Source: Psammoneis japonica (lineage: Eukaryota). Taken from it: 64,000 nucleotides of DNA. Under the pieces are notes generated by a model. The model was not told the DNA's origin, made no database searches, and saw only the letters and a list, made by a program, of their open reading frames with translations. Position numbers and translations under genes: made by a program. Positions 10,560 through 55,900 of this stretch are shown here, piece after piece (positions within the stretch are counted from its first letter, which is position 1; each line of letters opens with the position of its first letter). Location: the NCBI GenBank assembly GCA_008632985.1, contig QPGO01000006.1:62001-126000 (forward strand), written 5' to 3'.

Positions 10560-10562
10560 AAC

Positions 10563-25758: not shown

Positions 25759-25839
25759 TTCATTGTGTCCAATAAGCGGCGAACCGAACCTCAGTCGTGA
25801 GTCGAGAATGAAATGACCGAGACATTTTTTTTTTATGGC

Positions 25840-28800
25840 AGTTTTCTGTCATTGTTGTGACATGCTGGTGGTCATGCTTTGACATTGCGCCCCATTGTCA
25901 GCTCGAATTGATTCTGTGCTCAAACAGATTCAAAGTGCAGCTCACCCTCCTCCTCTTCACCCAGAGAAGGCTTGGGCGGAAGTCAGGGGTGAATGGATTG
26001 TGCCTGCACCTGACTTTGCACCACATCATGAACGCCACAGGCCTTGACAAGATGCAACTCATGGCGCTCCAAAAACAGCTCATTGGCAGAAACTTGGCAG
26101 GGCCCCTTGAACGACTTGTGTTGCCGCATCAAGTGAGGCATTGCCGCCAATCTGCAGTCATCCTGAGTGGCATTTGAGCAGAGTTTGAGCAATCGACAGT
26201 CACTGGGATCACAGTGTGCATGGGTGGGTGGCCACAAGTGAGAAACCTGGAAAGCTTGAGCGCAGCTCTTCCAGCTTTGCAGCCACCCGCCACTGCCGCT
26301 GCTGTCGCCAATGTCCTCCTGCTGTTGTTGCTGTTCCAGCACCAAGACAGATGTGCAAAGTCACACCAAGTCAACTGCCAGTGCTTCTTTGGGGGAAGCA
26401 TGATGAGAAATCCCTTCTTCTTGTGCTTGGGATGCTGCCAGGTGTGTCGTTCATCAATGCAGCAAGAAGACATGTGACTGGCACTGGAACAAGTCAACCA
26501 CCTGTCAAGTGTTGGTGGAGGGCACACATGTGGATGCTTGAAAAGGCAGCAGTTGTGAGTCCCAACCCTTGAACAACTCCAAACTGGCGTGGCAGGCATG
26601 CCCCAAATGAGCATGTGCAGACCATCGCCATGGTGATGCCACAAGGAAAAAGAAAAAATGACCACCAACAATGGTGAAATTGATGTGGTGGATGAGGTGT
26701 CCAAACCATTGTTGCTTTGTGAACAGCTGCAGCCACTGCTTTGTCAAACTCTGTGGGTCACATGGCTGCAATTGTCCATTCGGAGACAAGCACCTCGGCA
26801 AGAATTTTGGAAAGATGCGTGCCGTTTGGGTTGTTTGTGATGCCACATCACCCGCCAATTCTTTGTGCACCTGTTGCCAGCCAGATTTCCAGCACCCACT
26901 GAGTTGAAGCCAGTGGCAATGCCAAAAAAGTCAGCAAACAAAATCAAAATGTGGTGACGCGAGACATTGCTGGCGAAGGATGTCGGGCTGGTGTGTCAAC
27001 AGAGGGCGAGATTGTGCAAGATCAGCTCTGGCCCATCACCACACAAGCAAGGGACACTGCACCAGGGTTCTCATGCACAGAGTGACTGCTTGGTGCTGAA
27101 GATTTTTTTGCGACTTCACAGAAGTGACTTCAGTGGTTCCACCCTGGCATTTTAGATTTGGGGGGAGTCAGATTGAAGAGATGAGTGAAGAGAAGGGAGT
27201 TTGTTGACAAATTCTTGGTGCGCAGTTCAAAGAAAAAGCAGTCAGCCACAAAGACAAAAATGCATTGATGCTGCCATCTCACAAAAGGAACACTCATGTG
27301 AGTGGAAGTTCTCCCCTGCATGTGTCCACTCTGGACTCTAGATTGATCTTGCAGAGATGTGAGAGCATGAAATTGTGGGTTTTGCTTCAAATCTTCATGG
27401 ATTGCATGGCACATTCTTGGCACTGAAGAGGCAAAATGTGGCTGCAATGAGGTCAGTGATGAATTGTGAAATGGTGCATGGTCATGAAATGGGTTTTGCA
27501 TTGATGCCATCATCCAGACCATCTCAGTGTTGAGAGAAAGGGTCAATTTTCCCCCTCATTGTGCCCCAAGACATGAGTCTTGGATCCAGTGTGACCCACT
27601 CATTTTCAAATTTTTTCAAAGTTTTGGCTGGGCTTTGACCCCCCATTGGAGACAGAAGTTCCCAAGATGCAAACATTGTTGGTCTCGTGCACTTGAAAGC
27701 AGTGCATTTTTCCTGACATTGTGCGTTTGAAGATGGGAGCAGCTTTTTGCTGAGCACCTTTGTTGTGCAGAGAGGGACAAATTTCAGCACAACTCTGCAT
27801 CCAACACAACTCTCTGCTTTCATTGTCACATCTTCCAAAAGGTGCAAGATCAGGCCACAAATGTTGCAGTGCTGACACCTGCAGAGATGGGGAGCCTTTG
27901 TTTGTGAAAGCTGCCAACATGAGTTGTTTCATTTTGTCAGCATGCCCAGAGCATCAGCCATCAAACTGATGGACTTGCGAGTGACTGTTTCTGATGTGGG
28001 GCATCAAGCCACTCCAAATTTTTTCATTGGCTGACTTGCCCACCTTTTTTCCTTTGGGGAAACAAAATCCAAGAATGCAGTTGATGCGCTGTGTGGTGAT
28101 TGCATGCAAATGATCCACTGCCAGACATTGCTGCTGCACATGTGCATCATTCATTGCATTGCATCATGGCAAATGCGTGCATGAAGTGTGATGTTTGGTT
28201 TTGTGTTGACAAATTTGTGGTCATTGTTTGGCACAGCTTTCTGCTGCAATTTCCCTGGGTGCCACTGAGTCACCACCCACCATCAAAATCAGAAGTTGCG
28301 CTTGAAAAATTGAAAAAGAATGCAGAGGGGATTTCTCATGAATGGCCCAGATGACAAGAGCCAGTTTGGGCAGAGCTGTGCACTTTTTTGGTGCAAATGC
28401 AAGTGCAGCAATTTCAAAAAATGCTCGTCATTCACTTTTCCTTTGAAGCCACACAACCAGTTCTGACAAAACTCAGCAAGGAAAAGACAAAATGGCAAGC
28501 CTGCTGCCAGCGGTTCATGCATTGTTGGCCAGCAGCTGGTGAGAGAGAGAGTCATCTCATGAGCTGTGCAATGAACACACTCATCTTCTCTGTGAAAAAA
28601 AAAACAACCAAGTTTGCAGCACACAGTTGTGCCTCTCAATGCCCCAGGTTTTCAAAAATCTGCCTGCCCTGCTGGTGCTGCATCAGTGTGCATTGTTTTT
28701 GTTTCCAACACACTCCAGCTCTGGGTGAGACCTCGTGCCACACTGCACTGTGACATGAAAGTTTTTCCATCACGTTGCTGAGCACAGAGAGGAGAAGAGA

Positions 28801-31800
28801 AAACAATCAAAACTGTGTAGAACTTGGTGGATGTGCACATCTGGAACAAGAGCGAAGCTCTTTGCAGAAGCAAAAGACCAACAACAAATTGGAACAAAAC
28901 AACACACTTGTGAGTGTGTTTCTGAAGTCAACCAGCAAAGCTTTTGTCATGCAATGAAAGGGACATTGCCACGCCCAATCTTCCAAGTGTTCATTTTCTT
29001 TCAAAAGCATGCCCTTCATTGCAACAAGGGTCACAAGCAACAGACCCGGGTGCTCTTGGCCAGAGAAACATGTCTGGTCAATCACTTCATTTTCAACATG
29101 GAGTTCTTGGCATTGTTTCTCAAACTCCTCTTTGTCAAACACCTTGGGCAGCTCCTTGAAGGTGACTGAAGGTTGTCCACTGTGCATTCCCCACCACCAA
29201 AACAGCTGCGGTGCAATGGTGAAATCTTTTTGGAGACTTGGCGGAGATTGTGCCTCCTTGCACAAGGCAGCTGTTTGACAAAATCCAGGCACAAGGCACA
29301 TGCATGCAGAAGTTCCTGTGGAAACATGCTGAACATGCCACAAATTTTGTCGCCGCTCAACATGTCAGAAATGACATGATGAGCCAAGTGCTGTGAAATG
29401 TCCTTCCTTGTGCCATTCACAAGCTGCAGTTGCTGCTTTGCCATGGTGCCTTTCCTCCATGGCAATGATGACAGCCTCCTCTGTGCTCTGGGTTTCCCCT
29501 TGTTCCACCAAATTGCAACAATGTGCAGGGTCATCACCAAAGCTCAAAGCATTGGGGTGTGTCTCACAGCCCCAATGACATGCATTCCAGATGTGTCACT
29601 TGAGTGTGAGCAACAATGGCAAGCCATGACATCATGGCTTTTTGTGTCACTGGTTGTCACACACAACAAAAAATGAAGACAGGAGAGCCAGGGCTGCTCT
29701 TGGAGAGGTGAAGCAACTCCCTCCACAAATGTCTCCCTCAGTGCATTGTGGCAAAACTTGATGTGTGTCTCCTTTTCAGCTGTCTCAGCTTTGGTTGTTG
29801 GTTGGCAGCTCTCTTGTTTTGGTTTTGGGGTGCAGTGGTGCCGCACTCCCAGCACAGACCAAAGGGAGTGGCTTTGGCGACACTCGTCACTGAGATTGCC
29901 CAATGTGACAACAGCTGGTTGAGCTTGCAGCAGATGACCCCCCGTGTTGTTGCAGAGAGTGGAGTCATCAAACAACGTGATGACAAGGCAAGTGACGCGT
30001 TCCAGCCCTAGGTGGGGGCTCGTAGTACTGACGTGTGACACAAATAATTTTTATCATCCGTCGTATGTTTCGCACGTAGCTTTCTACGTGTGGTATTTAA
30101 AAAAAATTGTCCAGACTCGCTGTTTTGCGAAGCCCCAGACGTTTTATATAACGAATTTATAGAAACAATAATGCGCCAGTTACATTCTTCAATGTCTGAA
30201 GAATGTAACTGGCTAAGTAAAAAATGATGTACTTCAATCATGGGCGAGTTTGTGCGTTCGCAAAATTGCCTCATTTTCTGTTGGCGATCATTGACATTTT
30301 AATTACCGTATAATTTTACTATGGAGCTCGCACGTAGAAGTCTACGGGCCCAATGTCACACGGATTCCCACCTACGTCTGGAACGCGTCAAGTGTGAAAT
30401 GTGATCCAGACTTGGCATTGAGAGATGAGTTGCAAATGTGCTCATTGCTGAGGGGACATTGTTTCTCCTCATGCCGTTGCTGGCACAACTGAACAACCAC
30501 AGAGCCACAGAGCAGCTTTCTCATGCAATGCACAAAAAAGAGCAGACATGCACCAGGGAGAACTTGGGTCTAACATGCACAGCAGAGCAGGTGCGCTCTG
30601 GCTCCAACAAAATCAGCGTGCACCTCAGGGCACCAGAGGAGCACGACAAAGACTTGCTGCACTTGCAGTTGCTGCCCTTGGCACATGTGACCCAAGATGG
30701 GGAGCCACATGCAAACCATGGGAAAGACGATTCTTTTTCATCATGGCACTCAATGCTTCCTCCAAAGAACAAAGATTGTTGGCAGAGTTTGCGCTTTTTA
30801 AAGGCCAGGGGGTCTCAAAAGTTGGGCTTTCTCCATCTCCCCCAAGCTGAGTGGATCAAAACAGCTGGCAGCAATTCTGCAGCTGTTGTTTGAGCAAGGG
30901 GAGGGAGAGTGAGAAGATGCAGAAAGCATGTCAAACTCCTCCTCCCAAGAAAGAGCCATGTCATGGAGCAGGCTGTCATCACACACCTGCTGAGCCAGAA
31001 AGCTGGCACCAATTTGCTTTGCCTCTGGGACATGTTGAAAACAACTGCTGTCATCAAACCACCACACTTGCTGCCCCGTTCATTGTCTGAGATGTGGAAG
31101 CTTTAAAAAGATGGAGAGCCAGGAGAAACAAACAAATGCCAACATGAAATCTCAACCCAGAGTGGAAAGGGGCATGAATTTGTCTGGGCTCAAGTCAAGA
31201 ACATGGTTGAGAAATCCCAACAGATCCAATGCAAGAGTGAGGTGCATTGTTCAGGCTGAGCTGCGAGAAAGAAGAACATTGAGGACACCTCTGAAAATGT
31301 CGTCAGAAAGCACATTTTTGTTGTTGTTGCAGTTGTCAAACACAAAGCCGCTGTGTTGTCAAAACAACAGATCCACAGACAAGTTGTGTGATTTGTCCAA
31401 GAAAACAAACAGAGAGAAATGCAGCAGCAGAAACACCCCAAAATACGGGCAATGAGCAATTGAGTGAAAGGTCTTTTGCACAAACAAGCTGTCTTTTAAC
31501 AACAGCTGCATTTGCAAAATGAGCAGCAGCACATTTGATGCCATTGCAGCTGTCATTCTCATGGGTGCTGACAATGGCAAAGAAAATGCCAGATGTGTGA
31601 CTTCAAACAGGAGAAAAGCAATGATTTCATTTGTGAAAATGCAGCCGCAGAACAAAGCAAAAACCCATGTTTGCAAAATTTGTGTGTGCGCGGAAATTGC
31701 AGCTGCAGCTGTGAAAATTGTGGCCATTGTTCACAGTCAAGTGATGCGCTGGAAAGCCCCACGCCACATGAGAAAACAGTGTGGGATGTTGAGTGGACAG

Positions 31801-32270
31801 CCGAAGGTGCTGCCCTCTGTGGAGCCAGAGCGGGTCTGTGCTTGAATTTTCACAGCTGCGAAGCCACAAGTCAGTTTGTCTGCTCTTGGATCAAGAAGTG
31901 GCTGTTTTTGTCTTCGCCAGCTGTGCAGTGCATGAGAGGCTGCTTGTCACTGATTTTCTCTTGACAACAACATTGCAGAGCAAGCCCCAGCTGCGAGCGC
32001 AAGGTCGCGGGCTGAGCGTGCCGTGTGCCTTGAGTGCCAGTGTGTTGCAGGACAGATGGCAGTCATTTGCACCCAAAAAACAACTGGCTGGTGTGAAAGC
32101 CATGGAGTCAATCTCTGGCAGAACAGCGCACCTGCAGAGATGGACAAAATCGCTCTCCAACAAGGGAGGTTGAGCACTCGGCTCACCACACCCGTGAAGT
32201 TGGGGCTTGAGGCAGGAAGACATTGCAGCATGTCTCTCGGTCATGTCCGTCCCTTGTGCAAAAACATGAT
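25840..32270. mobile_element. Highly degenerate TA-depleted repeat block, probably a transposon relic, interrupted by a MITE
   Basis: TA and CG are both rare. Fragmentary minus-strand coding-like stretches are present. Family not identifiable by eye. Confidence 0.5.
29994..30389. mobile_element. MITE, 396 bp, TIR gacgcgttccag...taggtggg, 4-bp TSD aagt
   Basis: Left end gacgcgttccagccctaggtggg and right end cccacctacgtctggaacgcgtc. aagt at 29990-29993 and 30390-30393. Confidence 0.9.
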
Positions 32271-32675
32271 GTAAAATCCCCACTACTATCAAAAGAGAGA
32301 GATACGTGGAAAAGTACTCAGGGCTTGTGTAGGAAAAGCGTTTCACAGAGGTCGTTTCGACGAATTTTCTTTTACTATCAGCTTCGTGTAGTTTTTTTGG
32401 TGTATATATCCTAAACCAATGAGGAACTCAAAAGCAAGTATTACATATGCGTTGGCTAGTTATTTTGTGATTAAGAATTTCCGTTGAGAATGCAGAGAGT
32501 AATTTTGGATATCTATTGCTTTTGCGCCAAAAATTTGAAGAGCACATCTTCATACTGTACTACATACATAGAGTCGTACGGTACATAGTAAAGTAAAAAA
32601 GGGAGAAAACGGAGTCTCGCGACGAGAGCAACGAGAGAGACGAGACAGAAGCATGGAATCCCTCCAATTTGCAAG

Positions 32676-35900: not shown

Positions 35901-37149
35901 GTAAAGAAAAATGGGGCATTGTGCAATTGATGAATCCTTTCCGATTTGGATAACGACACCATCTTGGAAAATGCCGAGAGGTTGAATTGGAAATCACAAG
36001 AGCGAATCAAGACGTTGGAGCAATTGTGAAAACAACTCGCTAGAGTGTGATTGACACGAAATGACAAAATGAATGGATTCGAGATATTGTCACCAAGAAT
36101 CGTCTTGTCGTTCGAATCGAAAGCAAATCAATCAAGAGCCCGAGAGAGCGGTGCAACAATGAAAATGTTTCGCTTCTTTTGTTTTCGTTTGACTGTACCG
36201 ATTCCAACACGCACTCCAAAAGAGATACAGTCCCCAAAGGTACAATCCGAAGAAACTTTGTTTAGCTTTTTTTTCGAGTACAGCAAACTCACGTCGACTA
36301 CCACCGCTGGCGAGTTTGTGTTCCAACTCTATACGCCACGAGACGAACAAATCGTCTTCAATTAAAAACAAGACTGGTCGATTTTGTTGTGTGTTCAAAG
36401 TCGTGCTCCCCCCAAAAGCGCGAATCTAGAACGTTGTTATCAGAACGCATGTACTCGTTTCGTCTTTCGAAAATCGGTAAATGTACCAAACGATGCTTCA
36501 CGACATGTCGTCGTCGTCGTGAGTAGTTCCAAGAAATAACAGCCTTTTTTCCAATTCGCATCACTTGAAAATTGATGCAGTAGAAATGGCAACGCGACCT
36601 TGTGCAAATCACCCCACTGTTCACTGCGTTGCGGATGACACAGCTGCAACCTGCTGAATGGCACGCGACATGAAATTCTTGAATCTCGCTTTTGTAAGTT
36701 TTTGTTGGGTGCAGATCAAGAGAGAGAATTGCAGACATGATGATGATGCTGGTAGGGCCCTCTGCTAGTAGTAGAGACAAACCCTAAGCCAAAGCATCAA
36801 GATCTTTGCGGAACACCAACAAGAGAAAAGATACCGCGAAGATCTTTGCGCTACTGTATTTGCGCGCAGTTGCTGACGGTCTCCTCATGTGGCGCCAAAA
36901 TCGCGGGAAATCTAATATATTCATTCATACAATCGTGAAGAATTTGAATAAGTAAGATGGGCAATAGGTCGTCCTACACAACCATGGTACATATTTCTAC
37001 GTGAAACCTGCCAATCACACAACGTCTACCTCGCAAAACCATCTGCAGATCCCACGACACGATCGTTCCCACGGACCCACGCTTTCTCGTGTAAGGGCAC
37101 ACAATTGATTCAATCGACGTATTGCATTGACTCAATTGCCTTGAAATCA

Positions 37150-38547
37150 TGGATCTGTCCGACTCTGCCATGTCCAACATCTTTCTTGCATTCATCATCG
37201 TGCACTTTGTTCTCTCGCTTCCAGTTCTTGTCGGGGGCATCGAGATCTACGTTCGCTTCTTCCATCACCATGTTTTCGGCCTCTTTCCTTGGGTGTTTCC
37301 AAAGAACTGGACGACAACGGCAAGTGAACATGACTGGCTTGTGCACCCAAGTTTTGTGCCTTGACAATCACATCTGACTGTGTTCTTGCGTTGTTGCCGC
37401 CGTGATGTAGGAGCCGGCATTTGCTGACGACCGCGATTGTGGAGAAGAGGATGTCAAGCGCTTCTGGCACACCATGCATCTCTTGGTTAGGATGTTTGCT
37501 GTCTTTTGTTGCAGCCATGCAATCGGTGTCGATGCGAAGCGGGCGTGGCGCATTTTTCGCAGCCCGACGTTCAACAGCAGTGTGTCTCTGTTGACGGGGC
37601 ACATCATTTTGGAAGCAAGCATCAATCTCTACAAAAAGCTCATTGGCACGATTCAAAAGTCCATCATCTTCTTCCGCGATCTGTCGAGTGCATTGATGGA
37701 GTCCACAGTCAAGATGGTGGGTGAAACAACTCCAATCACGGCAGCGCTTGTCAAATTCGTTTGCAAGAATGCGCTCAAGACAGTCAAAGGGTGTGCTTCC
37801 AGTGTCGGATCCAAGGAAGACCCTTTGATTTTGCTGGCGAGTGTTGACATTGGAGAAGTCGTTTGTGCCACTGACAAGAAGATTGCTGGTGTTGTGATCC
37901 ATCTGCTCGTCGCGTCGGCACACGGACTTGACGCAACACAATGCACTGGACTTGCGTCTTTGGTTTTCTGGCGCTTTGCTCCGTGGACATTCAAGTGTTA
38001 CAATGAAGGCTGTTTTGGGAAGGGACTGGAGTCAACCATTGAGTTGCTTGATTCCAAGTGCAAACGAGGACAAATTGCAATTCTCAAACAGGGTTCGGGG
38101 CATGTCGAAATGCGAGCGAAAATTCTCAAGGTGCATTTCGATGACAAGCCAGTTCCCTGTCACACCATCCTCTTGCCCAACAGAAAGGAAATTCTACAAA
38201 CGGATGAGTTGCAGTTAATGAAAGAGCTGCCTCCAACTTGTTGCAAGCATTTCGAAGACGATTTTGACGACGAGGAGGACGAATTTGAACGAAGCAGGGA
38301 AATGATGTCAGTGTGGCAAGTTTTGTTGAGCTCAAAAAGGTTCTGGCCGAAACAAATGCTGTGGTCCATGCACACGTGGCGGCCTCACCAATGTGGCAAC
38401 CTGTCGGTGAGACAACACAAAAAAGCAATCCTGTGCGCGACATTTGAGTTCTGCTTTTTGGGAAATTTAGCTGCATCGGAATGGAAAGAACTCGTCAAAA
38501 TGACACTGCGACGACACCTGCTCTGTGTGCATGCAATGCTTGTTTAG
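37150..38547 (+). pseudogene. TA-depleted copy of a hypothetical host gene
   Basis: AKILKVHFDDKPVPCHTILLP...EILQTDE resembles a recurrent diatom motif (VH.DD..PYYTI...E.QT, from recall) with YY read as CH. Confidence 0.45.
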
Positions 38548-38664
38548 CACTGATCATCTTTTGAATTCCACAGCATTTGTGGTTGATCACGTGTTCTACA
38601 TTGTACGGCAGCCGAGCGATGCTGGGCTTCCGATCATGCGACTGCTCGCACTCTGTTCTCTAGA

Positions 38665-39570
38665 CATGGATGCAACCATTGATGTTTCTTTTGGTTGTGG
38701 CATGCCGCGTGCTCTTGACAACAATGAAATTTGATGGATTTCTTGTCGCACATCCAATGGGTCTTCATCGTCGTGCAAATCACAATGCTCCGCCACGTGA
38801 TCAATGGAAAAAGACATGTCTTCTTCTTCTTCCGATGATGATGATTCTTCTTCTTGCAGGCGTTGTTGCTGTCTCGCAAGAGCCGCCATGCGACACAATG
38901 ACAATTGTCGACAGAGTGACTGTTGCATGCCACCAATGGACGACATGGAGGTGGATGTGACTTCACTTGCAGCCGTGCTGGGAGTCATGTCACTTGTCAA
39001 GCTGCATGCATCCACTCAAAGGATTCATCATCAATTGGGCGCTCACTGGAAACAACCGATGCTGCCATTGTCGCAACTGCAGCCATCTTTGCAACACTGG
39101 GGACTGTCATCCATGGCGCAGCCATTGTCATCATCTTGCTTGGATGTTTTTGTCTCGTCTTTTTGTTTCTCATTGCTCGTTTTGCTGGTCCGCGTCTGGT
39201 CTTGGGTCGTTTCTGCACTTTCCACCAAACTGCCAATGGGAGCTGACACCAACACAAGTGCCACGGCTGCCACGCAGACACCGCAACTCCTGCATTGTTG
39301 CTGCTGCATTTCTTGGAAGACTTCAATGACTTGTGCATTTGAGGCTTCTTGCAAACTTGTCGTATCGCCCAAGGCTTGTTGTTGCACCACACGCACAAAT
39401 TCTGTTTCGACGGGACTGCCTTGAAACAAAACTTGGCCCATGCACTTCAAAGTCGTTGCAGTTGTCAACAAGACTCGATTTGATTTTTGCAAGCCCAAAT
39501 CAATGCGGATGGTCTGCAGTGAACTTTGAACAAAGTGTTCCATCAAGCATTGTGAAAGGGAATCAAAACG
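38665..39570 (-). pseudogene. Partial, hypermutated copy of the membrane-protein gene at 59940-61718
   Basis: Shared peptides GQVLFQGSPVETEFVRVVQ, GVCVAAVALVLV, TSMSSIGGMQQS, RMAALARQQQR and SSSEEEEDMSFS.DHVAEH. Frameshifted. Confidence 0.92.
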
Positions 39571-39654
39571 GCCCTCATTGATTCCGGCATTCTCATCACT
39601 CTCGTGACACACTCCGACGAAAAATTGGAGCGACTTCGCCCACAACATCTTCCG

Positions 39655-41240
39655 TGCACGTGGGACTTGCAGTCACCAGTCCAGCCTCCACAAGCACGTC
39701 CAACTGATGGCATCCGTGTCGTCCAGGCCCTGGAGCAGAGTGCAGGAGGATGCCGGTGCAGCCGTGCAGGTTTGCCGACCGCTTTGAGCAGCAACCGTTG
39801 GGTGCCTTGAGGCGTTGTTGGACAAGCATCCTGACTTAGATTCAAAATTGAATGCCAAGTCCAACAAGACACTCATGCCATCGTGAAAAAAATCAGTGAG
39901 ACGCTGGCTGCAGTTCGTGAGCAAGTGACATCTTGGACAGAGAGAGTGAGTGCGAAAGCACACTTGAAAAAGCCAATGCTTCCCAAGTCCCAACAGCACA
40001 GTGTGTCTGGACCCCAGGGATCTTTTGCATCTTTGCTGCTCGCAGCATCACTTTTTAAAAATGAATCTCCTGTGTCTCTGCACAATTGGCATCTGTTGTC
40101 AAGGGTCGAAGACAAAGGGCATTGCATCCTCTCTCAGTTGATGAAAATTGAGCTGAGGGGACGTCTGCAATGCAATGCACTGCCCATCTTGCATCAGGGG
40201 TGCCAATTTTCTGTGACACCTCACTCTTCAGCCGAACTTGATGCCGACGATGGCAACAAACGGCTTCCGGGGCTTCCACTCCGCTTCATCACAAACATGC
40301 GAAACAAAAAATTGCATGAAAAAGATGCAGTCAAGTCTAGATTTCACAGAGCAAATGGCAGAGGCGGCGCTTCGTCTCCTTCTCCCTCACAGGACCGGCA
40401 AACAGACAATCACGAATCTTTGCCCCCTCAGCATCCTTGCTGCTGTCGTTGATTCAACCAAAACCAAAATCACTGGTCACCCGCAGGATTCAAAAAGGCA
40501 CCAATGCACAACAACAGAGACAAAACATGCCGTCAAGGGTGGCGACCACTTGAGACGCAACGAGACGACTCCAGAGAGCATGACAATTCTCGAGGAGAGA
40601 CGACACGACTCAAACTGACGGAGTCGACCCCACAGCTCCTGCAGAGCTTCTTTCTCGATGCCAGACTTTCCCTCTTAAGAGTGCAGCATCGATGACGACG
40701 TAACGTGGCTGCTGTCAACGCCAAGGGTAGAGTCACTTCATGCACGTGGGACTTGCAGTCACTGGTCCAGCCTCCACAAGCACGTCCAACTGACAGCATC
40801 CGTGTCGTCCAGGCCCTGGAGCAGAGTGCAGGAGGATGCCGGCACAGCCGTGCAGGTTTGCCAACTGCTTTGAGCAGCAACCGTTGGGTGCCTCGAGGCA
40901 TTGTTGGGTGCGCATCCTGACTTAGATTCAAAATTGAATGCCAAGTCCAACAAGACACTCATGCCACAATTTAAAAAAAAAACAGTGAGATGCCAACTAG
41001 CAGTTTGTGAGCGAGCAACATCTTGGATGGAGAGAGAGTGGAGAGTGAGTGCGAAAGCACATGTGAAAAAGCCAACGCTTCCCAAGTCCCAACAGTGTAG
41101 TGTGTCTGGACCCCAGGGTAAATTTTTCCTTCTTTGCCACTCGCACCATCACTCTTTCAAAGGTGTCCCCTGTCTTTTGTCATGGGATGGAAGACAACGG
41201 GCATTGCATTCTCTCTTAGATGATGAAAACAGATGGCTGG
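39655..41240. repeat. Direct repeat pair, about 39655-40150 and 40741-41240
   Basis: tgcacgtgggacttgcagtcac...gtgtgtctggaccccaggg occurs twice, with weaker similarity beyond. Confidence 0.9.
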
Positions 41241-41514
41241 ATGACGTCTTTAGGAGTCTGAAAGGGCCAAGTGGCAGAAGGTGATTTGAGCAACAGGGAA
41301 CGCAACGTCAGAATTTGGTGCACCCTCTTGAAACGCGGTGACACTTTTACGGAGCAGTGTCGATTCAGGAATGTGAAGAGGTGCCGCACCCTCCAACAAG
41401 GGGTTGCTCTTCACAGGAATGAATTGTTGTAGGACCGCGAAAAGACTCTTGGACGTTCATGACTTGCACATCATACGGTAGAACCGGCACGTGCCGAGAT
41501 TCGTCATGATTCCA

Positions 41515-41625
41515 ATCTCTCATCCGACTCTCACCCTCTCATCGAACTCTCACCGAATCTCTCATCCAAAGTTCTCACCGCTCTCATCCTGAAAAATCCA
41601 GATTTCTCACCGACTCTCACCGAAA
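41515..41625. repeat. Cluster of ctctca(t/c)c motifs, possibly transposon subterminal repeats
   Basis: About nine closely spaced tctcacc/tctcatc motifs. Confidence 0.6.
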
Positions 41626-44600
41626 AACTGAAAAAGCTGAAAGCAAAATTCCATCTGTGCACCAAAGAAAATGAGAGAACGAAAACCATCCACAAGTTTC
41701 ACGATCACTTTTTTTTACAGTAGATCAGCACACTGACCGCACGACCATGACCGAAAACAACGGTGACCCCGGGAAACGTAACACATGACCCACCATGGAA
41801 ACAACGGAGAGGTCCAAAGCATCAATTTGCTTGAACTCGGCACACTGCACTCCTCCCTATTCACATTCATGAATCGCCTGGCAATTGTTTGAAAATGAGA
41901 CCAATTTGGCGCTGTCGTTGCTGGTGCTGAGTGCAAGAGAGGATGATTCCTGCAGGGAGCTGGGCAAGATGACAAAAGTTTGTGTGCTCGCAACTTGTTG
42001 TCCAACTGCTTTTCTGGCTTCATCCCGGCAGAACTTGGCAAATCTTTTGAATCAAGAAACGCTCATGTTGCATGTGAATCGGACTGACGGGATCACACCT
42101 GCGCAGTTGGAAAGACTCAAGAAGCTGTGCAAGTGTGCTGATTGCTGATGCATGATTGCTTTCAAAACAGTCGCCACTCACTCATTTGCTTGTTCTGCCA
42201 TTTGCATTGTTGCACCGTTCCACTGGCTAGTTTTTTTTTTCCATTGAAAGGAACAAGTTAGTGGGAACAACACATTCAGATTTTACAGCTTGTGCTGGCC
42301 TCATTAGAAAGTGGTGGCAACAATGTGCTGTGTCGCTTCCGTCATGTTGATGTTGGACATGGGCGTTTCTTTTCCCACGGCCTCTTTTTGCAACTGAATC
42401 AATTCCTCTTTGTGCTTGGACATTTTTTGTCAAACGTTTCGGCTCGTCCCGTCTCCACATCAGGTGTGCCTTCCTTGGTCCAACGATCAAAGCCAGTTGC
42501 AGCGTCTCACAAGAAACTCCGCAGAGCTGGAATTCAATGGATCACATGCTGGGTGCTGTCGTGGAAGAGAGCAATTCCAACCTGAGTTTACACAGAAGAA
42601 CAAGTCTCTAGCGGCAGGCCCTCTCTGCAGCAGAGCAGAGATGCCGCAGTGACACGGTCGCTGCAAGGGATGACTCTTGAAGAATTCTCTTTAGAAAGAC
42701 ACCAAGCATGAAATCGTTGGTCACCGCTGGTGTCGCCATGGCTGCTTTTTCCTCTTGTCTTTTGCCAAAGGCACGTTCCCACCCCGACAATTTCGGCCGT
42801 AAAATGCAGGGGTCACCGATTTAGTGTTTGTTGTTTGTTGTCCCGGATGATTGCTCATTCGTTGGACTTTGTTGGCGAAGAAATGTGACAATTGCATTTG
42901 GGTGACTTTTGTTCGAACATTTAGTGTGAGTTGAACTTACGTCAATGATGATGTCACAAGGGTCTTTCTGGGTCACCACGGTTCAACTTCTACGTGCGGT
43001 GGCATTAGCGTCGAATCACATGACCAAAAATGTTTCGTGTCAATTACAGATGACATTGCAGGAATTAGGAATTCTCAGAATGAACACATGTCTTGCCAAG
43101 CACGTAGATTCTATGAGTGCCGCACCAGAAACAAAGATCGCAGTGCAAAACATTCATTTTTTTTTCTTCGACGATGAGCGAAAGCCGTTGCGCAATGTCG
43201 GGTAAAGGTGTGAAGACCCTCGGTTTGATGGCTCCACATGCCAACCTTGACACATGCCGAGCACATGTGGGAAGCCTGTGCCGAGGGTTTGAAGCGGGAG
43301 TGTTGCGAATGTCGCCGATGCATTTTTGGAATCCTGTTTCGCCATCTTCGTCTGCCAGCTGATGCGCCTTCTTTGTCGACTGTTTTGGCAAAGACTTGGT
43401 CAGCAGCAAAAAGTGTGAGCCACACTTACATTCTAACACATCCAAACTGCAGCATGAGAGCTTTGTGCCGCACAAAACCAAAAGCCATTGAGCCTTCTCA
43501 CTGTTTTCCTTGGCACCGGATGGTTTGGATCGGAGCAACGTCTTGTGTCAAACGCAGGAAGCAACAAACAAGCGGATGAACATGGTGGCACATGATGCAC
43601 CCCACGTTCTCATTCGTGAATGTCCACTTGACAATGTGAGAGCTTGCCACTGCAATGGAAGCTGACGTCAAACAAGTGCTCGCTTCTTTTTCTTCGGAGT
43701 CCACAGAGAGAAGATGTTGAAAGTAAGAATGTGCAACAAAAGGCAAAGCAAGATTTGGTCAATGCCAAACACTTCAAACCACACACTCGCATTCTTGCAC
43801 ACAATGACGACAACATGAGAGCTTTGCACCACAATGAAACGAAAAGGAAAAGGCCTTCTCACTTTCTTTCCTCGGCGCAGCGGGTGGAATCGACAGGTGC
43901 AACGACTGGTGTCAAACAGAGCAAAAAACAAACCAGCTGGGGCCAAATGTGGCAGTTGATCCACCACATTCGCATTCTTGCATTCTCATGTGACAATGTC
44001 AGACCTTGATGCTTCAACAGAAGCATCAATCAATCGAGTGCTCTTGCTTCTTCTTCAGGGTGCACAAGAGAGAAGAAATTGAAAGTGAGAAAATTGAAAA
44101 GCACGTTTCGACATTTTGGGATTGTTTTGAATTGCAATGTTCACATTTGACTCACCTTGAATGTTCGAAAGAGACAATGTTCCAGCTGTCGGTTCAACAA
44201 GATGAACAGACACGAAACCCCGCCGTGTCACTGCTTGTCGGCACCCTCAGAATGCTGCAACATTTCTTCCTGATTGTTGGCAACTGAATTTCTTTAGTTT
44301 CCGTGCAGCTTCAAGCAAACAAGCATTGCGGGATGTTCCTTCGAAGGTCAATGACACAATGAGCTGATTGTCAGCACATGACACACTTACGATGGCCGTC
44401 GAAACACTTCCAGCGTCATGGTGAAGGTTTCGGGTTGAGAAAAAAAATGTGCAATCTTCCGTTGCGGTCTTGCCGTCACAAGTCTGCACAAGATCTTGGT
44501 GCCATTTCTACGCTGGTGCTAAAAATTTCGCTCTACAGACGCAAATGTCATGGATGAACCGTGGTGGGGCAGGCGTGCGTCGGAACTGCCTGACACCGGC

Positions 44601-44656
44601 CTCGTTTGGCGTCGAAGGCTCAATTAAAACAGTGACAGATGATGTCATCAACTTAA

Positions 44657-45327
44657 CCCCACTCCCAGCGCGAACCATGCAGTGGTTCGCCGCGCGAAAT
44701 CACGGATGCGCGCGACTGTTGCCCCGAACCATAACGTGGTTCGCTGCACGCCAAAAACGACCCGATGCACAATGGTTGAAAAGGTAGAAGGTAAAGAGAC
44801 ATCTACAACAAATTTGCATCAGTCGATGCAGCAAAGTCCACTTGACAACATGCATGCTTCATTTTAGTGGTTTGCTACGTTCTTAAAAGTCTCCACACTG
44901 CTGCCGTCTTGTTCATCATCGAACCACATTTTTCTGGTGAATTTTGGCATTTGACCTGCTGGCACAAATTGCACGTAGATTTCTACGCACGTCCTCCGAA
45001 CCACATCATGGTTCGACAATTCTGCAGGGTTCTTGGCACTTGTCTACGCAGCGAACCATTGAGTGGTTCGACAACATCTTCTGGTGCTGTTCTACGGTGG
45101 TTTCTACGGGGTGATAAAATCACCGCCAACGACCATGACGGTGATTTGACGGCGACCGTGCTTCATGCACGAGTGGTTGCTGACAACACAATGCATTGGT
45201 GACGATGGCTTTTTGACTCTGTTAAAAGGTCACACATGTGCAGGTGCCACTTTATCGTGTCAGTCACGAGTTTCACGTTGCGCAAGTTGCGAACCACCAA
45301 GTGGTTCGACATTTTGCCCGAGTGGGG
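44657..45327. mobile_element. piggyBac-type non-autonomous element, 671 bp, TTAA TSD
   Basis: ttaa|ccccactc ... gagtgggg|ttaa (TTAA at 44653-44656 and 45328-45331). Five internal CGAACCA-N5-TGGTTCG palindromes. Confidence 0.8.
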
Positions 45328-47056
45328 TTAAGCAGGAAAATGTCTGACGTGTCTTCATGTCTCACGGATTTCATTTGTGAAAATGACAAACACTGCATTT
45401 GCGGTCAAACACAGAAACAAAATCACTTGGATTCGTTGGCAATGCAATGCTCGTGGAAACAATGCGAAAAACAATGAACACTGGATGTGCGCGCTGCGCG
45501 ATTTTGATTAGATCAGCGATGCCTGCAAATGTTTTCATTCTGCACAAAATTCCTGTAGAAACTCTCGTACAAGAAAAATCGCACGTCTGTTTTCCATCCG
45601 CCAATTTACAGATCAGCCAATTTCATGTTCAGCGGCTGTCTCTTGCGGCCTCGCATCATCACTGCACGCGAGAAATCCAGCAATCCGTTTGTTTTTCCCA
45701 GTGATCAGCGTTTTTTCTGGAACAATGTGCTGGATTGGAATTTTTTAATGGATTGATTGCTGGATGAGGCATTTTGGGTAAAATGATGACCCAATTGCTG
45801 GGACATTCCAGAAAACGACCTTTTTTTACCGGAGTTGTTTCTGGATGCCTTGCATCGTCCGTTTTTCCGTTGGATGACGCGACAATGTCAACGGTCATCA
45901 TTGCGCACCTGTGCTTGCACCATGATGACAAAAGCTGCAGCCTCATTCTTTGTCTCTTTCGTTGCTGTGTTCCGTTTGATGCAAACAATGACAGAATGAC
46001 AAAGCGTTGGCTCTGCAAGCATTTTTTATTTCTTTGGCTGTCAGTGCATCTTCGATGAGGGCGAGTTGTTGCACCATCATGCCGTGCAGCGAGCGAGAAC
46101 ATGCGCAGCGGCATGGATGTGGCGACTCCCTGGCCTTCAATGACAGAGCATGGAACACCTGTTTTTGTCATCTTCTTCATGGATGGTGAGTGAATGTTTT
46201 GAGGCGGATCGTGCTCTGCTCTCACATTGTGTGCTTGCCAGCCCCGTCGTGTTCTCTCCATGTCTTCATGTGGCGCGCCCACATGCTTCACTCCGCAGCG
46301 AGGCAAGCATTGTGGTGATTGATGGCCCTGTTCCACCCAAGTTCCCAAGAAAGCCATCTCCTGAGCTTTTGTTTTTCGCGCATTGTGGTGGTCCCCTTCT
46401 CTCATGGCAAGGATCTACGATGGTGCACACATCCGCGGGGCTCCGTGCTTCTGCGTTCCGTTGTGCACACGGCGGACGCAGTGATTGGCATCTCCCCACC
46501 ACCAATGCATCCAAGAAAGACCGTGGTCATGCCACACTTTTTTCATCAGTGGGAGCTACATCGGTCCATCGGTCCAATGATTTGCGTCAGCCGATGCGAG
46601 TGCAGTGTCGCTCCATCCTTGTCCCCATCCGCGGTGGCGGTGTCACGCAACGTGACGATTGATGCCACACATCTGCCTCACCTTCTGGCTCTCCCAACTC
46701 TTGGTCTGTCACCCAGAGGACTGCTGTGCCTTCATCAGCTTGTCCCACAGCATTTGTCCATCGTCTGATTTGGGCGGTGCACCGAGTGAAGCTCTGTGCG
46801 GAGGCCCCACTGACGAACCTTCTAGTGCCATCCCTCTGATGATGCGTGCCAAGCCAATGTCCAACCGGCGAATCTAGTGTGGCACCGTCTTTTTCCTCAT
46901 CAACAGCACACCCAGTGACGTTCCCACATTGTTGCCCTTTGCTCGTTGGATCCCTTTCAGTTGTGATGATGAACTCGGTTCCTCTAGGACGCAAAATGTG
47001 CATGGTGCGCACCAAACTGTTGTGTGTCATTTGTTTTGCCAGTTCTCACACATTTT

Positions 47057-47608
47057 CTAACACGTGTGGCATGCTTTTGGCTTTGCAATTTCCCCTGCGC
47101 AGTCCATCTCCCTCCACTCCGAGGTCACAACATGGCAATCTCTTGGTGATTCATCATCTGGACTTGTGATGTGCTCTTTTAGCCGCGGCAAGAAGAGGCA
47201 CTTGTGGAGAATGTCTTCTGCCGTGAAGTCGCCGCATGCATTGTCACAGACCGCCGCCGCAGTGCACTCTGTCCACCCAAAGTGCGTTGCCCCGAAAATT
47301 TCCTCTCCCTCATCTTGCACACGTTCAATCTCAATGTGCCTTTCTCCTTTTACAGGAATCCCATGCTTGCCGTTACGAAGACACAAAACAGACAGCGGCT
47401 TGTGTTTCCGAAGAGAAGCTCGAGCTTCCTCCTCATCCTTGCACAGGTGACAGGGCTTGCAGCGGATTCTTTCTTTGTAAGCATCTGAACCATTGTCGTC
47501 AGTGCCGTTGCAATCGTCTGCTTCATCTTCATCAAACTCGACCTCAACTTGTTCTGTTTCGCCTTCGCCCTCGCCTCCATCTTCCTCCATCTTGGTTGGC
47601 TCTGACAC
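47057..47608 (-). pseudogene. Coding relic, possibly the C-terminal part of a transposon protein
   Basis: Acidic tract followed by a globular-looking segment (CLFLPRL...DCHVVTSEWREMD) in a TA-poor block. Family not assigned. Confidence 0.3.
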
Positions 47609-48149
47609 TCTCTTTTTTACACCCTAGGGTGCAAATTTGACAGCGAGTGAAGGAAACATCAAGGGTGTGTCATGCTTGAACAACAACACATCACTTGCTG
47701 GGAGGGTGTCTCGCGTCATTCCCACTCTGACGCAGGTGAGTGTTCTCGTCTAGATTCAGTTTTTGTTGTTGAGAGTTGGCCCAGACACTCTCTTCCAGAC
47801 ACCCTAGAATGCAAATTTGACAGAGTGCAGGAAACATCAAGGCCATGTCATGCTTGAATGACAATGCAAAGGTCACAGAGAAGGGTGCGGATCGGGATTG
47901 TTTTGTTGTGGGAGTCGCGTTGAGTTGTTCAGGAGTGCCAGTGCATCAAATGTGTTGAAACATTAAATCTAAATGACTGACAAAGTTCTGTGCATTTGCT
48001 CTAGATGACTGCCACAGAATGGTTTCCATTGTTTGCTGCCACAGAGAGGAGCTGCCATTTGCTGCGGAATTTGCTGTGAAGTGTGTCTGTTGATGAGAGT
48101 GGGCGGAGAAAGTCATGGCCGCGGCGGCTGTCACTCCACATAGATTGAT

Positions 48150-48890
48150 GGCACCAACCAACCCAACAACTGCAGCCAGAGCACATTGGGGGTCTTTGGT
48201 GGACCCCAGGCAGGCTTTGAGAACTGTGGTTGATGCTTTCAAGGCCACTCTGGCACAGTTGTTGCCCCAGTCACTTTACACCACAATGAGGGTGAGACTT
48301 GAAATCCCAACTCCACAGTGAAAGAATGCCATGAGTGCACCAGCCAACCCAACAACTGCAGCCAGAGGGCACTGGGTGCCTTTGGTGGACCCCATGCAAT
48401 GCTTTGAGAACTGCGGTTGAGAGTTGCAAGGCCACCCTGGCTCAGCTGTGGCCCATGTTGCTTCAGCCCACACCACACCAAGGGCGAGACTTGAAATCCC
48501 AAGTCCACAGTGAAAGGACACCATGAGTGCACCAAACAATCCAACAACTGCAGTCAGAGGGCATTGAGGGTCTTTGGTGGACCCAAGGGGACACTTTGAG
48601 AGCTGTGATTTTGAGAGTTGCAAGGCCAGCACCCTGGCTCAGCTGTGGCCCCGGCCGTGTCACTTCACACTGGGCCCATGCCAAGGGTGAGACTTGAAAC
48701 CCCAACTCTGCAGTGGAAGGATGCCATGAATGCACCAACCAAGAACCCAACAACTGCAGCCAGAGGGCATGGGGGTCTTTGGCAGTTCCCAGGGAACACT
48801 TTGAGAACTCTGTGGTTGAGTTTTGCAAGGCTGTTCTGGTGCAGTTGTTGCCCCCATGTCACTTCACACCACTCCAAGGGTGAGACTGGA
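48150..48890. repeat. Satellite family 1, about 190-bp unit, four copies
   Basis: gcacca...ccaacaactgcagccagag...gtctttggtggaccc...ctttgagaactg...gagacttgaaatcccaa recurs near 48151, 48337, 48529 and 48732. Confidence 0.85.
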
Positions 48891-48929
48891 TGAGCACCTC
48901 AATTGTGTCACAAAAAAGTCATCAGCTGA

Positions 48930-50135
48930 GAGCTCTGGCCATTTTGCTGTTCTCCTTGGGTGGATTTTAAGAGCTTTCAATGTGGTTGGCTTGGTTCATC
49001 TGGTGTTGTTTTGGCCCAACATTGCCCAAGACCAGCACAAGACAGACTTGATCACTTCATTTGGACAATGGATGAACACCTCAGTGCAACAAACTGACTG
49101 TGCAGTTGTCAACCAAGGGTTCTGGCCTGCTCACTGTGTCCCTGAGCTGGTTTTTAAGAGCATTGATTGTGGTCAGAAAGGTTCATCTGTCGTTGTTTGG
49201 GTCAAAATCTTGCTCAAAGCTGGCAACAGACAGACTCATTTTTTGTCTGCTGGACAATGGATGGGTGCCTCAAGCATGGCAAATGAACCAAACAGCAGTT
49301 GCTTGCAGAGGGCTCCAGACAACTCAATGTGACCCAGGGGTGGACTTCAAGAGTGGTGGTTGGCTTGGCTCATCTTGTGTTGCAGTGTTGGCCCAACATC
49401 AGCACCCCAGCAGTCTGCAGACAGACTCATTTTCTGTCTGGACAATGGACAGATGCCTCAAGCATGGCAAACAAACCAAACAGCAGTCATTTGCTTGTGG
49501 AGGGCTCCAGATGACTCAATGTGACACAGGGGTTGACTTCAAGAGTGGCAGCTGGCTTGGCTCATCTTGTGATGCAGTGTTGGCCCAACATCACCCCAGC
49601 AGTCTGCAGACAGACTCATTTTCTGTCTAGACAATGGACAGATGCCTCAAGCATGGCAAATGAACCAAACAGCAGTTGCTTGCAGAGGGCTCCAGACAAC
49701 TCAATGTGACCCAGGGGTGGACTTCAAGAAAGGTGGTTGGCTTGGCTCATCTTGTGTTGCAGTGTTGGCCCAACATCACCCCAGCAGTCTGCAGACAGAC
49801 TCATTTCCTGTCTGGACAATGGACAGATGCCTCAAGCATGGCAAACAAACCAAACAGCAGTCAGTTGCTTGCAGAGGGCTCCAGACAACTCAATGTGACC
49901 CAGGGGTGGACTTCAAAAGTGGCACTTGGCTTGGCTCATCTTGTGTTGTTGTTTTGGCAAAACATCACCCCCCAGCAGTCTGCAGACAGACTTGTTTTCT
50001 GTGTCTGGACAACACACACCAAACAGTTGCCAGCAAAGGGCTCCAGCCAACTCAATGTGACCCAGGAGTTGACTTCAAAAGCGGCACTTGGCTTGGCTCA
50101 TCTTGTGTTGTTGTTTTGGCCAAACATCACCCCAA
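48930..50135. repeat. Satellite family 2, about 188-bp unit; degenerate relatives at about 52250-52900
   Basis: caactcaatgtgacccaggggtggacttcaa...ggcttggctcatcttgtg...gcagacagactcattt...ggacaatgg repeated at least five times. Confidence 0.9.
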
Positions 50136-50219
50136 TCTGGGATCTGGTGCAGATGCCTCCTCCTCTTCCTCACTCAAGAACACTGTTTGCATCCAAAGGA
50201 CCAACATCTTGAAGGGTTG

Positions 50220-54959: not shown

Positions 54960-55900
54960 GATCCAGGAAAGCACTGTTTGATTTGCTTCAGCAAGTTCAT
55001 TGCATTATTGTTATTGCTGTTGCAGCTATTGAATCTAATTCTTTATGGTGTGCCTTTCATTTATGCAGAGCAAAGGAGAGAGCACGCGACGGTCAAGAGG
55101 CTTCTTTTTCGCGTGGCGTAGCGAACCTCGCTGTCAATAACGTTCCTACTAATAGGAATACGGGAACCCAAGAAATGGAAGAAGGGGTAAGCATAGTTTG
55201 GTGTTGTTATTGCTATTCCAGCTATTGAATCTAATCATTTCGTTTTTGCGTGCTTTTCAATTATGCAGATGGAGGAGCGAGCGACAATAGCCAAGAGGCT
55301 TCTTTGTCACTTGGCATAGTGTACCCCGACGCCAACAACATTACTACTAGTAGGAATACTTGAACCCAAGAAGTGGTAGAGCCCTTCATGGCAGGGGCAG
55401 TGAATGGATGTCGGGGTGAAGTGGACGAAGAGAACAATGTTGACGAAAGGAAGGGCGAAAAAGACGAGATGGCTACAACTCAACATATCAACTAAAAGAA
55501 GACAACAAGGTGAGCAACATCACGTATGTACTGGCTTGGTTTTTCTTGGTATGTATATCCTTTTCCAAGTATCCTCAATAGTTCTGCCTTTTGCGTTTCA
55601 GCGGAGCCGAGAGGAGACGACGCAATAGACCGCAAACGGGAACATTCGGTAAGTCGTTTTAAGAATAGTTCTCTTTTCCTTTTCTGGCGACTCACACCAA
55701 TTGTTCTTCCCTCTTACATACACTGCCACAGAGCATCCGATGAGGTACAAAAGAACAATGTATGCGACCACCATTCTTGCAGCCAGAGCCATAATGAATC
55801 CTTTACGAACAAGTCTCAGGATGATGGCGCGTACTACAAGACGGAGACGCACCTCTAATAGGCCTAGTAGGGCAAGAAAACCGAGGAGACTTGACGATTA
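54960..55900 (+). pseudogene. Spliced gene relic with a duplicated intron-exon unit
   Basis: GTAAG...CTAAT...TGCAG intron at about 55188-55268. cagctattgaatctaat...ttatgcag...caagaggcttcttt...taggaatac...aacccaagaa occurs twice. Further gtatgt/gtaagt...cag pairs and in-frame stops are present. Confidence 0.4.

Follow-up and report, generated by a model that had tools for sequence, protein, structure and literature searches.

The stretch of DNA analysed here (the window) comprises 64,000 nucleotides of the genome of the diatom Psammoneis japonica (NCBI GenBank assembly GCA_008632985.1, contig QPGO01000006.1, positions 62,001 to 126,000 of the forward strand) and holds two copies of a gene for a putative membrane protein, one intact and the other broken. 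The broken copy (38669..39564, minus strand) is a hypermutated, frameshifted internal fragment that matches roughly codons 198-510 of the intact open reading frame (ORF) and has lost nearly all of its TA dinucleotides (TpA). The intact paralogue (59940..61718, minus strand) lies in one of several gene-bearing islands of normal TA content. Also present are a Ngaro-like retrotransposon, two insertions resembling miniature inverted-repeat transposable elements (MITEs) and a group of satellite arrays.

The intact ORF comprises 599 codons from stop to stop (59943-61739), with its first Met codon at 61718-61716 and its stop codon at 59942-59940. The product is predicted to be a type I membrane protein; as read from the translated frame, its N-terminus is hydrophobic, and the rest of the chain includes an acidic run, a segment rich in Pro and Thr, a conserved module some 90 amino acids long, a single hydrophobic span and a tail rich in Ser and Gln. 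Its similarities to known families are weak throughout, namely Mid2 in Pfam (E = 0.0062, below the cut-off) and, in the Atlas, an unnamed family from Bacillariophyta as the closest cluster (score 0.90), with mucin/SEA-like clusters at 0.76. The broken copy has no signal peptide, Pro/Thr-rich part or C-terminal end. Self-BLAST of the 64-kb window aligned 38669-39564 to 60211-61148 with 71.6% identity over 969 columns (78% over ungapped aligned sites). With 15 insertions or deletions, of which six shift the frame, and five or more stop codons in every sense frame, 38669-39564 is a dead internal gene fragment. Outside the network of sites linked to TA or CG, 13.7% of positions differ between the two copies, so the fragment is either old or was copied from a diverged paralogue outside the window. 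Adjoining the fragment is a pair of direct repeats (39655-40147 and 40741-41229, 87% identical over ungapped aligned sites), and the fragment may have been carried by, or lie inside, a mobile element.

A first-pass annotation had singled out this pair as evidence for the direction of a TA-specific change. The coordinates that it gave proved right to within about 6 bases in the self-BLAST, and the five pairs of DNA strings and three pairs of peptides (SQYLME/SQCLME, EHYDLH/EHCDLH and DAYSL/DACSL) that it listed were all recovered from the alignment and the translations. The aligned stretch of the intact gene (941 bases) has 37 TA and that of the broken copy a single one; over the 906 bases originally flagged, one TA compares with 60.3 expected from base composition and 38.1 expected from the density in gene islands. 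Among the 32 TA of the intact copy that align without gaps, 15 are CA in the broken copy, 10 are TG, seven are something else and none is kept. Counted from intact to broken, the substitutions are T>C (42), A>G (28), C>T (27) and G>A (16), and all seven aligned Tyr codons have become Cys codons. In all, 25 of 32 TA have turned into CA or TG. The proposal that TA was lost from the broken copy is borne out, as is the statement that the functional copy is untouched, its TA density being similar to that of other gene islands (42.1 per kb).

The loss in the duplicate is thus real, but its scope had been drawn too narrowly: it belongs to about 44.5 kb of the 64-kb window (about 70%), well beyond this duplicate, with the genes sitting in TA-normal islands. 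Islands and TA-depleted blocks (here called TA-free DNA) were delimited from a dinucleotide profile in 1-kb windows and from 200-base bins. The block that holds the gene fragment (37121..54666) has TA observed/expected ratios of 0.03-0.23, rising to 0.36-0.39 in the two 1-kb windows that overlap a MITE-like insertion and the right border; this one TA-rich insertion is the sole interruption of the block, the 48-54 kb part of which is also CpG-free. To its right, the island with the intact gene (54667..61967) is followed by a further TA-free block (61968..64000) that starts about 250 bases upstream of the start codon of the intact gene. The remaining blocks lie at 601..16520 (TA-depleted, including the retrotransposon), 19371..23007 (CpG-poor as well, with TA-free gaps of 1128 and 1551 bases) and 25835..32271 (also CpG-poor, with one MITE-like insertion inside). 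Other TA-normal islands occupy approximately positions 1-600 and the intervals 16.5-19.4, 23.0-25.8 and 32.3-37.1 kb. The transitions are sharp to within tens of bases; for example, TA is absent from 53607-54667 and thereafter occurs about once every 10 bases. The longest gap without TA, of 1551 bases, would hold about 65 TA at island density.

We compared islands (18,450 bases) with TA-free DNA (44,550 bases), counting both strands. Per 1000 dinucleotides, TA declines from 42.1 in islands to 5.1 in TA-free DNA and CG from 51.7 to 31.6, and CA plus TG increases from 149.4 to 200.6. The pool of TA, CA, TG and CG is thereby conserved (243.1 and 237.2 per 1000, respectively), and roughly nine tenths of the lost TA and CG is recovered as CA or TG. 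Taken together, the conserved pool and the gain of CA and TG indicate that TA and part of CG were converted by transitions within pyrimidine-purine steps; the G+C fraction is 0.462 in islands and 0.504 in TA-free DNA. A mild under-representation of TA is found everywhere, with an observed/expected ratio of 0.58 even in islands. The CpG ratio is uneven among TA-free stretches, being 0.02-0.2 at 1-3, 20-22, 27-30 and 48-54 kb and 0.6-1.0 at 4-16 and 37-47 kb.

Selection on the intact gene had been offered as one reason why only one copy was hit. In the four larger islands, however, DNA outside ORFs of at least 110 codons has 46-74 TA per kb, compared with 34-38 inside such ORFs. Selection on protein-coding sequence therefore does not explain why the islands keep TA, and we reject selection preserving one copy as a sufficient cause; the pattern follows place. 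The other suggestion made at the time, targeting by chromatin domain rather than by pairing, fits better insofar as unrelated sequence to either side of the fragment is TA-free as well, over kilobases. A simple, continuously acting version of it does not explain the two MITE-like insertions. Both are TA-rich and end in terminal inverted repeats, and they have stayed unmutated in surroundings free of TA and CpG (29995..30390, plus strand, and 50648..51036, minus strand); they are about 390 bases long, stand in opposite orientation and differ in their inner parts, their ends and 4-base flanking repeats having been read by eye.

The direction of change could be examined with outgroups in the retrotransposon (7824..16721, plus strand), which lies in another TA-depleted block and was recognized by its repeats, its family of homologues, its likeness to reverse transcriptases and its architecture. 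A repeat at its left end (A1, 7824-8078) matches a second one near its right end (A2, 16017-16272) with 91.4% identity, and a further repeat (B1, 15572-16018) matches the terminal one (B2, 16274-16721) with 92.7% identity, all on the plus strand, with B1, A2 and B2 contiguous. This order of split repeats, A1-[ORFs]-B1A2B2, matches the layout described for Ngaro retrotransposons, of the DIRS order (PMC8547959). Between the repeats lie four plus-strand reading frames (8002-10080, 9957-10556, 10560-14360 and 14410-15069), all open and nearly devoid of Tyr. The third, of 1267 codons, has 5972 relatives at E ≤ 0.001 and 737 at E ≤ 1e-30 in a library of 1.84 billion representative proteins, the best of them 43% identical over about 1130 residues, and this large family seems to be unnamed. 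None of eight relatives gave a Pfam match at the gathering level, and the ORF itself had none in Pfam. A profile of 37 family members searched against PDB returned reverse transcriptases in all 12 matches (best E = 0.003); RVT_1 was weakly matched in 15 of the 37 (best E = 8.8e-7), one tabulated member scoring 21.4 bits against a cut-off of 29.6. RNase H is suggested by a single weak match and by motifs. Because no tyrosine recombinase was detected by Pfam or PDB sequence searches of ORF1 and ORF3, in which hypermutation to near absence of Tyr makes such a miss weak evidence, the element is called Ngaro-like.

Thirty-six relatives of at least 1100 residues, taken from the first 50 matches, were aligned to the 1267-codon ORF. 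Tyr makes up 0.2% of the residues encoded in the window and 1.4-4.2% of those in the relatives, Cys 2.8% and 1.0-2.0%, and His 3.7% and 1.6-3.5%, respectively; the other ORFs of the element have 0-0.2% Tyr. At the 16 alignment columns in which at least 50% of the relatives have Tyr, the ORF of the window has two Tyr, four Cys and four His, and the relatives, pooled, have 381 Tyr, two Cys and 22 His among 557 residues. With the threshold raised to 70%, seven columns remain, and the ORF has one Tyr, two Cys, three His and one Phe there. Tyr (TAY) is accordingly the ancestral state, from which Cys (TGY) and His (CAY) are derived; this is the outcome that the first-pass annotation had predicted for a comparison with outgroups.

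The split repeats of the same element record how and where the changes arose. B1 and B2 differ at 30 positions, none by a transversion, and 28 of these differences are linked to TA or CG: 12 oppose TA to CA or TG, 10 oppose CG to CA or TG, and six form three doublets of CA in one copy against TG in the other; the last two are other transitions. Three TA are kept in B1 only, nine in B2 only and four in both, the corresponding numbers for CG being two, eight and 17. As each repeat keeps TA that its partner has lost, the changes arose independently in B1 and B2 and hence on the chromosome, after the retrotransposon had inserted. By our arithmetic, each copy has lost about 0.6 of its TA and 0.23 of its CG, other sites having changed at about 0.003; relative to those other sites TA was lost approximately 300 times and CG 90 times faster. 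TA loss is estimated to be about 3.6-fold faster than CG loss. When A1 and A2 are included, the ratio for TA drops to about 100, giving an overall estimate of roughly 100-300. Doublets of CA against TG are what would be expected if each copy resolved one ancestral TA independently, and they were the most frequent adjacent double difference in all three pairs of dispersed repeats (9 of 20, 3 of 3 and 4 of 5; tandem-repeat pairs were left out of this count).

One border of the mutated DNA lies inside the retrotransposon itself. In the first half of the B1/B2 alignment the discordant sites at which one copy keeps TA or CG are divided 4:4 between the repeats, whereas in the second half B2 is the keeper at 13 of 14 (Fisher p = 0.039). 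Beyond about position 16,520 and up to 16,721, where the element ends, all 13 discordant sites favour B2. This bias places the end of the mutated block about 200 bases within the retrotransposon, facing the 5' end of a gene at 16923-18047, and leaves a terminal piece (16520..16721, plus strand) that escaped mutation. Elsewhere the borders are found some 80-400 bases upstream of the predicted start codons (first Met) of the outermost island genes. The islands at 16.5-19.4 and 23.0-25.8 kb each hold one convergent gene pair, so that both edges are gene 5' ends; those at 32.3-37.1 and 54.7-62.0 kb have a gene 5' end at the edge on their readable side. Such edges could reflect either the sites at which insertions are tolerated or the points at which protection starts.

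Within TA-free DNA, the survival of TA varies with the flanking bases. Compared with island DNA, 1-5% of TA are kept in the context RTAY (ATAT, ATAC/GTAT and GTAC), 5-18% in RTAR or YTAY and 26-43% in YTAR (TTAA 43%, CTAA/TTAG 34%, CTAG 26%). For the three-base contexts TAT, TAC, TAG and TAA the ratios are 0.03, 0.09, 0.19 and 0.20. A fitted model in which the A of each strand changes independently, about three times faster before a pyrimidine, reproduces all three classes. The same rule is visible in the fates of TA in the gene pair, where YTAY became TG in four of four cases and RTAR became CA in seven of eight, 11 of these 12 asymmetric contexts thus obeying the rule; RTAY gave four TG and eight CA. 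The rule also accounts for the conversion of Tyr to Cys in all seven cases in the gene pair. The two strands were used about equally, with 15 CA to 10 TG in the gene pair and four Cys to four His in the retrotransposon ORF. Since TA is palindromic, an A in T-A-Y is at the same time a T in R-T-A, and deamination of A and a modification that makes T pair with G leave an indistinguishable sequence.

A TpA-specific signature of this kind is already in print for a single organism, Bigelowiella natans, where its long-term footprint is faint, and the window presents a saturated case of it in a diatom. In a mutation-accumulation experiment, two integrated viral regions accounted for 231 of the 302 single-nucleotide mutations in the nuclear genome, and 230 of the 231 were A-to-G or T-to-C changes, all of these at TpA, at a rate of about 6e-7 per site per generation or about 1000 times the background; an ADAT2-like deaminase was proposed in the main text (Mettrop et al., bioRxiv 10.64898/2026.01.13.699255). 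The two cases have in common that the changes are confined to TpA and yield TpG or CpA, that they occur orders of magnitude above background, that genes elsewhere are unaffected, and that sequences bearing reverse transcriptase are among those depleted. We applied the thresholds given there for clusters (at least three consecutive 1-kb windows with TpA observed/expected ≤ 0.43 and CpA+TpG ≥ 1.52) and found by our own count that 32 of our 64 1-kb windows pass, in runs of up to 10. B. natans is a chlorarachniophyte, and thus a rhizarian. Depletion is saturated in the diatom, with ratios of 0.00-0.1 over kilobases, in comparison with 0.45 for the viral region of B. natans and 0.43 for its cluster threshold. 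The targets differ as well, being integrated viral DNA there and a host-gene fragment, a Ngaro-like retrotransposon and satellites here. Relative to the main text of the preprint, the preference for a 3' pyrimidine, the coupled decay of CpG and the borders on the 5' sides of genes are particular to the window; that main text does not analyse flanking bases, mention diatoms or link the changes to CpG, and the words 'context', 'flanking' and 'trinucleotide' do not occur in it. Finally, the mutations of B. natans were seen to arise de novo in the experiment that the preprint describes, whereas ours are a footprint read from one assembly. A literature search, which did not extend to most subscription journals, returned no account of TA-specific hypermutation in diatoms.

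We consider it likely that the pattern reflects a real, enzyme-driven and position-dependent hypermutation of silent DNA. DNA outside active genes would be hypermutated regionally, in place on the chromosome, by changes of TpA to TpG or CpA, which amount to A to G on either strand and would be fastest at 5'-TAT and 5'-TAC. As TA is palindromic, a hit on one or the other strand would yield CA or TG at random, and a slower decay of CpG to TpG or CpA would accompany the loss. The broken copy would then be an old partial duplicate that lay inside such a block and lost its TA together with its surroundings, and the intact copy would have been spared by its position in a gene island.

The likeness of this process to RIP (repeat-induced point mutation) has to be considered. 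RIP raises TA and AT content and makes stop codons. Like the process in the window, it is a transition hypermutation in one dinucleotide context that ruins mobile or duplicated DNA, leaves a strong footprint and marks DNA that is silent and often methylated. In Neurospora and other fungi it converts CpA to TpA, needs a duplicate and hits both copies, according to the parts of the literature consulted (PMC2621366, PMC7296669). In our case, by contrast, TA is destroyed (from 42.1 to 5.1 per 1000), G+C rises from 0.462 to 0.504, stop codons are not made and the intact copy is spared. The assertion of the first-pass annotation that the pattern differs from RIP is therefore upheld, although the main contrast lies in the opposite chemistry, in which TA is destroyed and none is made. 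A repeat-triggered mechanism of the RIP type would recognize homology, and its TA-free blocks would be repeats with copies elsewhere in the genome; the blocks do contain a retrotransposon with thousands of relatives, satellites with units of 182-192 bases, dispersed repeats and the gene duplicate. We nevertheless judge it improbable, as the intact gene is untouched despite 78% identity to the fragment over ungapped sites, only one copy of the retrotransposon occurs in the window, where most of the 44.5 kb is likewise without a second copy, the two MITE-like copies are repeats and yet unmutated, the mutation border falls inside a repeat unit, and the chemistry is the reverse of RIP. There is also very little chance that the RNA or cDNA of mobile elements was deaminated by an ADAR-like or ADAT-like enzyme and inserted in mutated form. 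One of the blocks is indeed a retrotransposon, and animals are known to hyper-edit retroelement RNA from A to G. The ADAR and APOBEC systems are comparable in that they use deamination against mobile nucleic acids, and ADAR favours U before the edited A (both the hyper-editing and this preference are touched on in bioRxiv 10.64898/2026.01.13.699255). They act on RNA or single-stranded cDNA before integration and leave strand-asymmetric footprints, whereas in the window the two strands take about equal shares of the hits (15 CA to 10 TG; four Cys to four His) and mutation followed insertion, B1 and B2 of one element differing by TA- and CG-type changes in both directions and its last 200 bases having escaped. 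Moreover, TA is just as absent from satellites and from a gene fragment that shows no sign of retroposition, and the favoured 3' neighbour is T or C, in place of the G favoured by ADAR.

A sequencing artefact would require that bases modified in silent chromatin, T or A at TpA and 5-methylcytosine at CpG, were misread, the true DNA still being TA. A single assembly cannot rule out misreading, and two features would suit it: conversion is nearly complete with sharp borders, and the retrotransposon ORFs are fully open and, when TA-linked changes are set aside, roughly match their most divergent relatives in conservation, with 80% of conserved columns kept in comparison with 77-93% in the relatives. 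Modification of both strands should however produce a mixed consensus that includes TA and new CG, whereas clean CA and TG are seen, with TA kept at 1-5% and CG falling. In addition, the same signature is real and heritable in B. natans, where the preprint found it by Illumina resequencing of mutation-accumulation lines, and the broken copy carries ordinary decay too (13.7% other differences and 15 insertions or deletions); we hold an artefact to be most unlikely. Hardly credible, in our estimation, is an account in which a pseudogene decays neutrally while purifying selection acts on the intact gene, or in which TA is selected against in non-coding DNA. The duplicate is old and TA is mildly under-represented even in islands (observed/expected 0.58), as such an account would have it, but TA persists in the non-coding DNA of the islands, some 90% of the lost TA and CG is regained as CA or TG, the 30 differences between B1 and B2 include no transversion, and TA-free runs extend to 1551 bases, where some 65 TA are expected. 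The ordinary decay of methylated DNA likewise turns CpG into TpG or CpA, and such a loss of CpG is seen in the same blocks, with observed/expected ratios down to 0.02. This loss differs from that of TA in being about 3.6-fold slower and in being strong in only some of the TA-free blocks.

Certain observations weigh against an enzyme-driven, position-dependent hypermutation or against the figures attached to it. The two TA-rich MITE-like insertions sit unmutated in TA-free DNA; they may have arrived very recently, the process may depend on a trigger that they do not carry, or it may act episodically. In B. natans, hypermutation was active in only some of the lines, as described in the main text of bioRxiv 10.64898/2026.01.13.699255. 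The context rule is only a tendency, since four of five asymmetric-context sites of the B1/B2 pair fit it and two of five His outcomes at ancestral Tyr columns of the retrotransposon ORF follow a pyrimidine, and the estimate of context effects assumes that TA-free DNA once had island composition. The ratio of rates is rough, because differences unrelated to TA or CG number eight in 255 positions between A1 and A2 and two in 446 between B1 and B2, and B1 and B2 are taken, on the model of long terminal repeats, to have been identical when the element inserted. For the membrane-protein gene itself, a search of 5.8 billion proteins with residues 190-480 and two scans of metagenome contigs returned no relatives, so that the gene pair has no outgroup of its own.

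As for the agent, the natural substrate of TadA/ADAT2 enzymes is A34, which follows U33 in the anticodon loops of tRNAs and is thus already in a T-A context. The main chemical alternative is oxidation of thymine by an enzyme of the TET/JBP type. Tentatively, and by analogy, we suggest a polynucleotide adenine deaminase of the TadA/ADAT2 type, which may be recruited to silent chromatin as a genome defence, as has been proposed for B. natans. The coupled decay of CpG may reflect methylation of the same blocks, or it could be a second activity of the same machinery; ADAT2 enzymes have been reported to deaminate C in DNA, as cited in the main text of bioRxiv 10.64898/2026.01.13.699255.

The genetic code determines what such a process does to genes. 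TAA becomes TGA or CAA and TAG becomes TGG or CAG, and a sense codon thus never becomes a stop. Loss of TA does remove Tyr, to Cys or His, and alters the codons ATA, TTA, CTA and GTA as well as signals that contain TA. As no stop codons are created, the retrotransposon retains its frames of 693, 1267 and 220 codons despite the near-total loss of Tyr, and TA-free DNA is full of long meaningless ORFs. Gene finders will call such spurious ORFs, TGA being the only stop left. None of the 134 ORFs of at least 110 codons in TA-free DNA reaches the Pfam cut-off, and two of the long ones have no viral relatives in IMG/VR, in a search sensitive to close relatives only.

It is conceivable, and we offer it with some reserve, that this diatom possesses a 'reverse RIP': a position-targeted, adenine-editing defence that would erase TpA, and more slowly CpG, from all DNA other than active genes, be it foreign, repeated or host-derived, with borders within about a nucleosome of gene 5' ends, and that would silence without stop codons. 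If so, TpA editing would be, together with the case of Bigelowiella, a widespread and overlooked genome defence of algae of the SAR clade (stramenopiles, alveolates and Rhizaria), and a TA-free, CA/TG-rich footprint could serve to map silent chromatin from sequence alone. Confirmation would point to a DNA-acting adenine deaminase in algae, which would be of interest for base editing. The window offers several natural experiments: a gene and the mutated fragment of it, a retrotransposon comparable with outgroups, split repeats usable as an internal clock, an element crossed by a border of mutation and young insertions that escaped. They lead to testable statements, namely that T-A-pyrimidine is preferred, that the loss of TA outpaces that of CpG several-fold and change at other sites roughly 100-300 times, and that genes are spared together with a few hundred bases to their 5' side.

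Other features of the window can be summarized briefly. The retrotransposon is GC-rich (53-59%) and has no second copy in the window; its relatives come from contigs some 6-10 kb long, and megabase contigs hold several copies. Its frames 9957-10556 and 10560-14360 are one reading frame interrupted by a single stop at 10557-10559, and the relatives start near that stop. A 21-base tandem repeat of 4.8 copies (7438-7537) lies just upstream of A1. Positions 48151-52122 hold three adjacent satellite arrays, whose units of 182-192 bases come close to the spacing of nucleosomes; the arrays are TA-free and have CpG observed/expected ratios of 0.02-0.13. Scans of the window with Rfam and for tRNAs gave no matches. 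Besides the intact membrane-protein gene, the islands contain genes that, according to Pfam, encode a protein with a weak NMT1-like match, an FkbM methyltransferase, a family 8 glycosyltransferase and a two-domain fasciclin protein, all as long uninterrupted ORFs. The proteins of the window are themselves absent from the collection of 5.8 billion proteins, in which the best match of the fasciclin ORF is 51% identical and a match of 34% comes from the diatom Synedropsis; the glycosyltransferase likewise has a best match of 51%, and the only two of its matches with an organism name come from diatoms, Epithemia clementina (42%) and a Thalassiosira species (36%). The Tyr content of the six island genes tabulated ranges from 0.8 to 4.1%.

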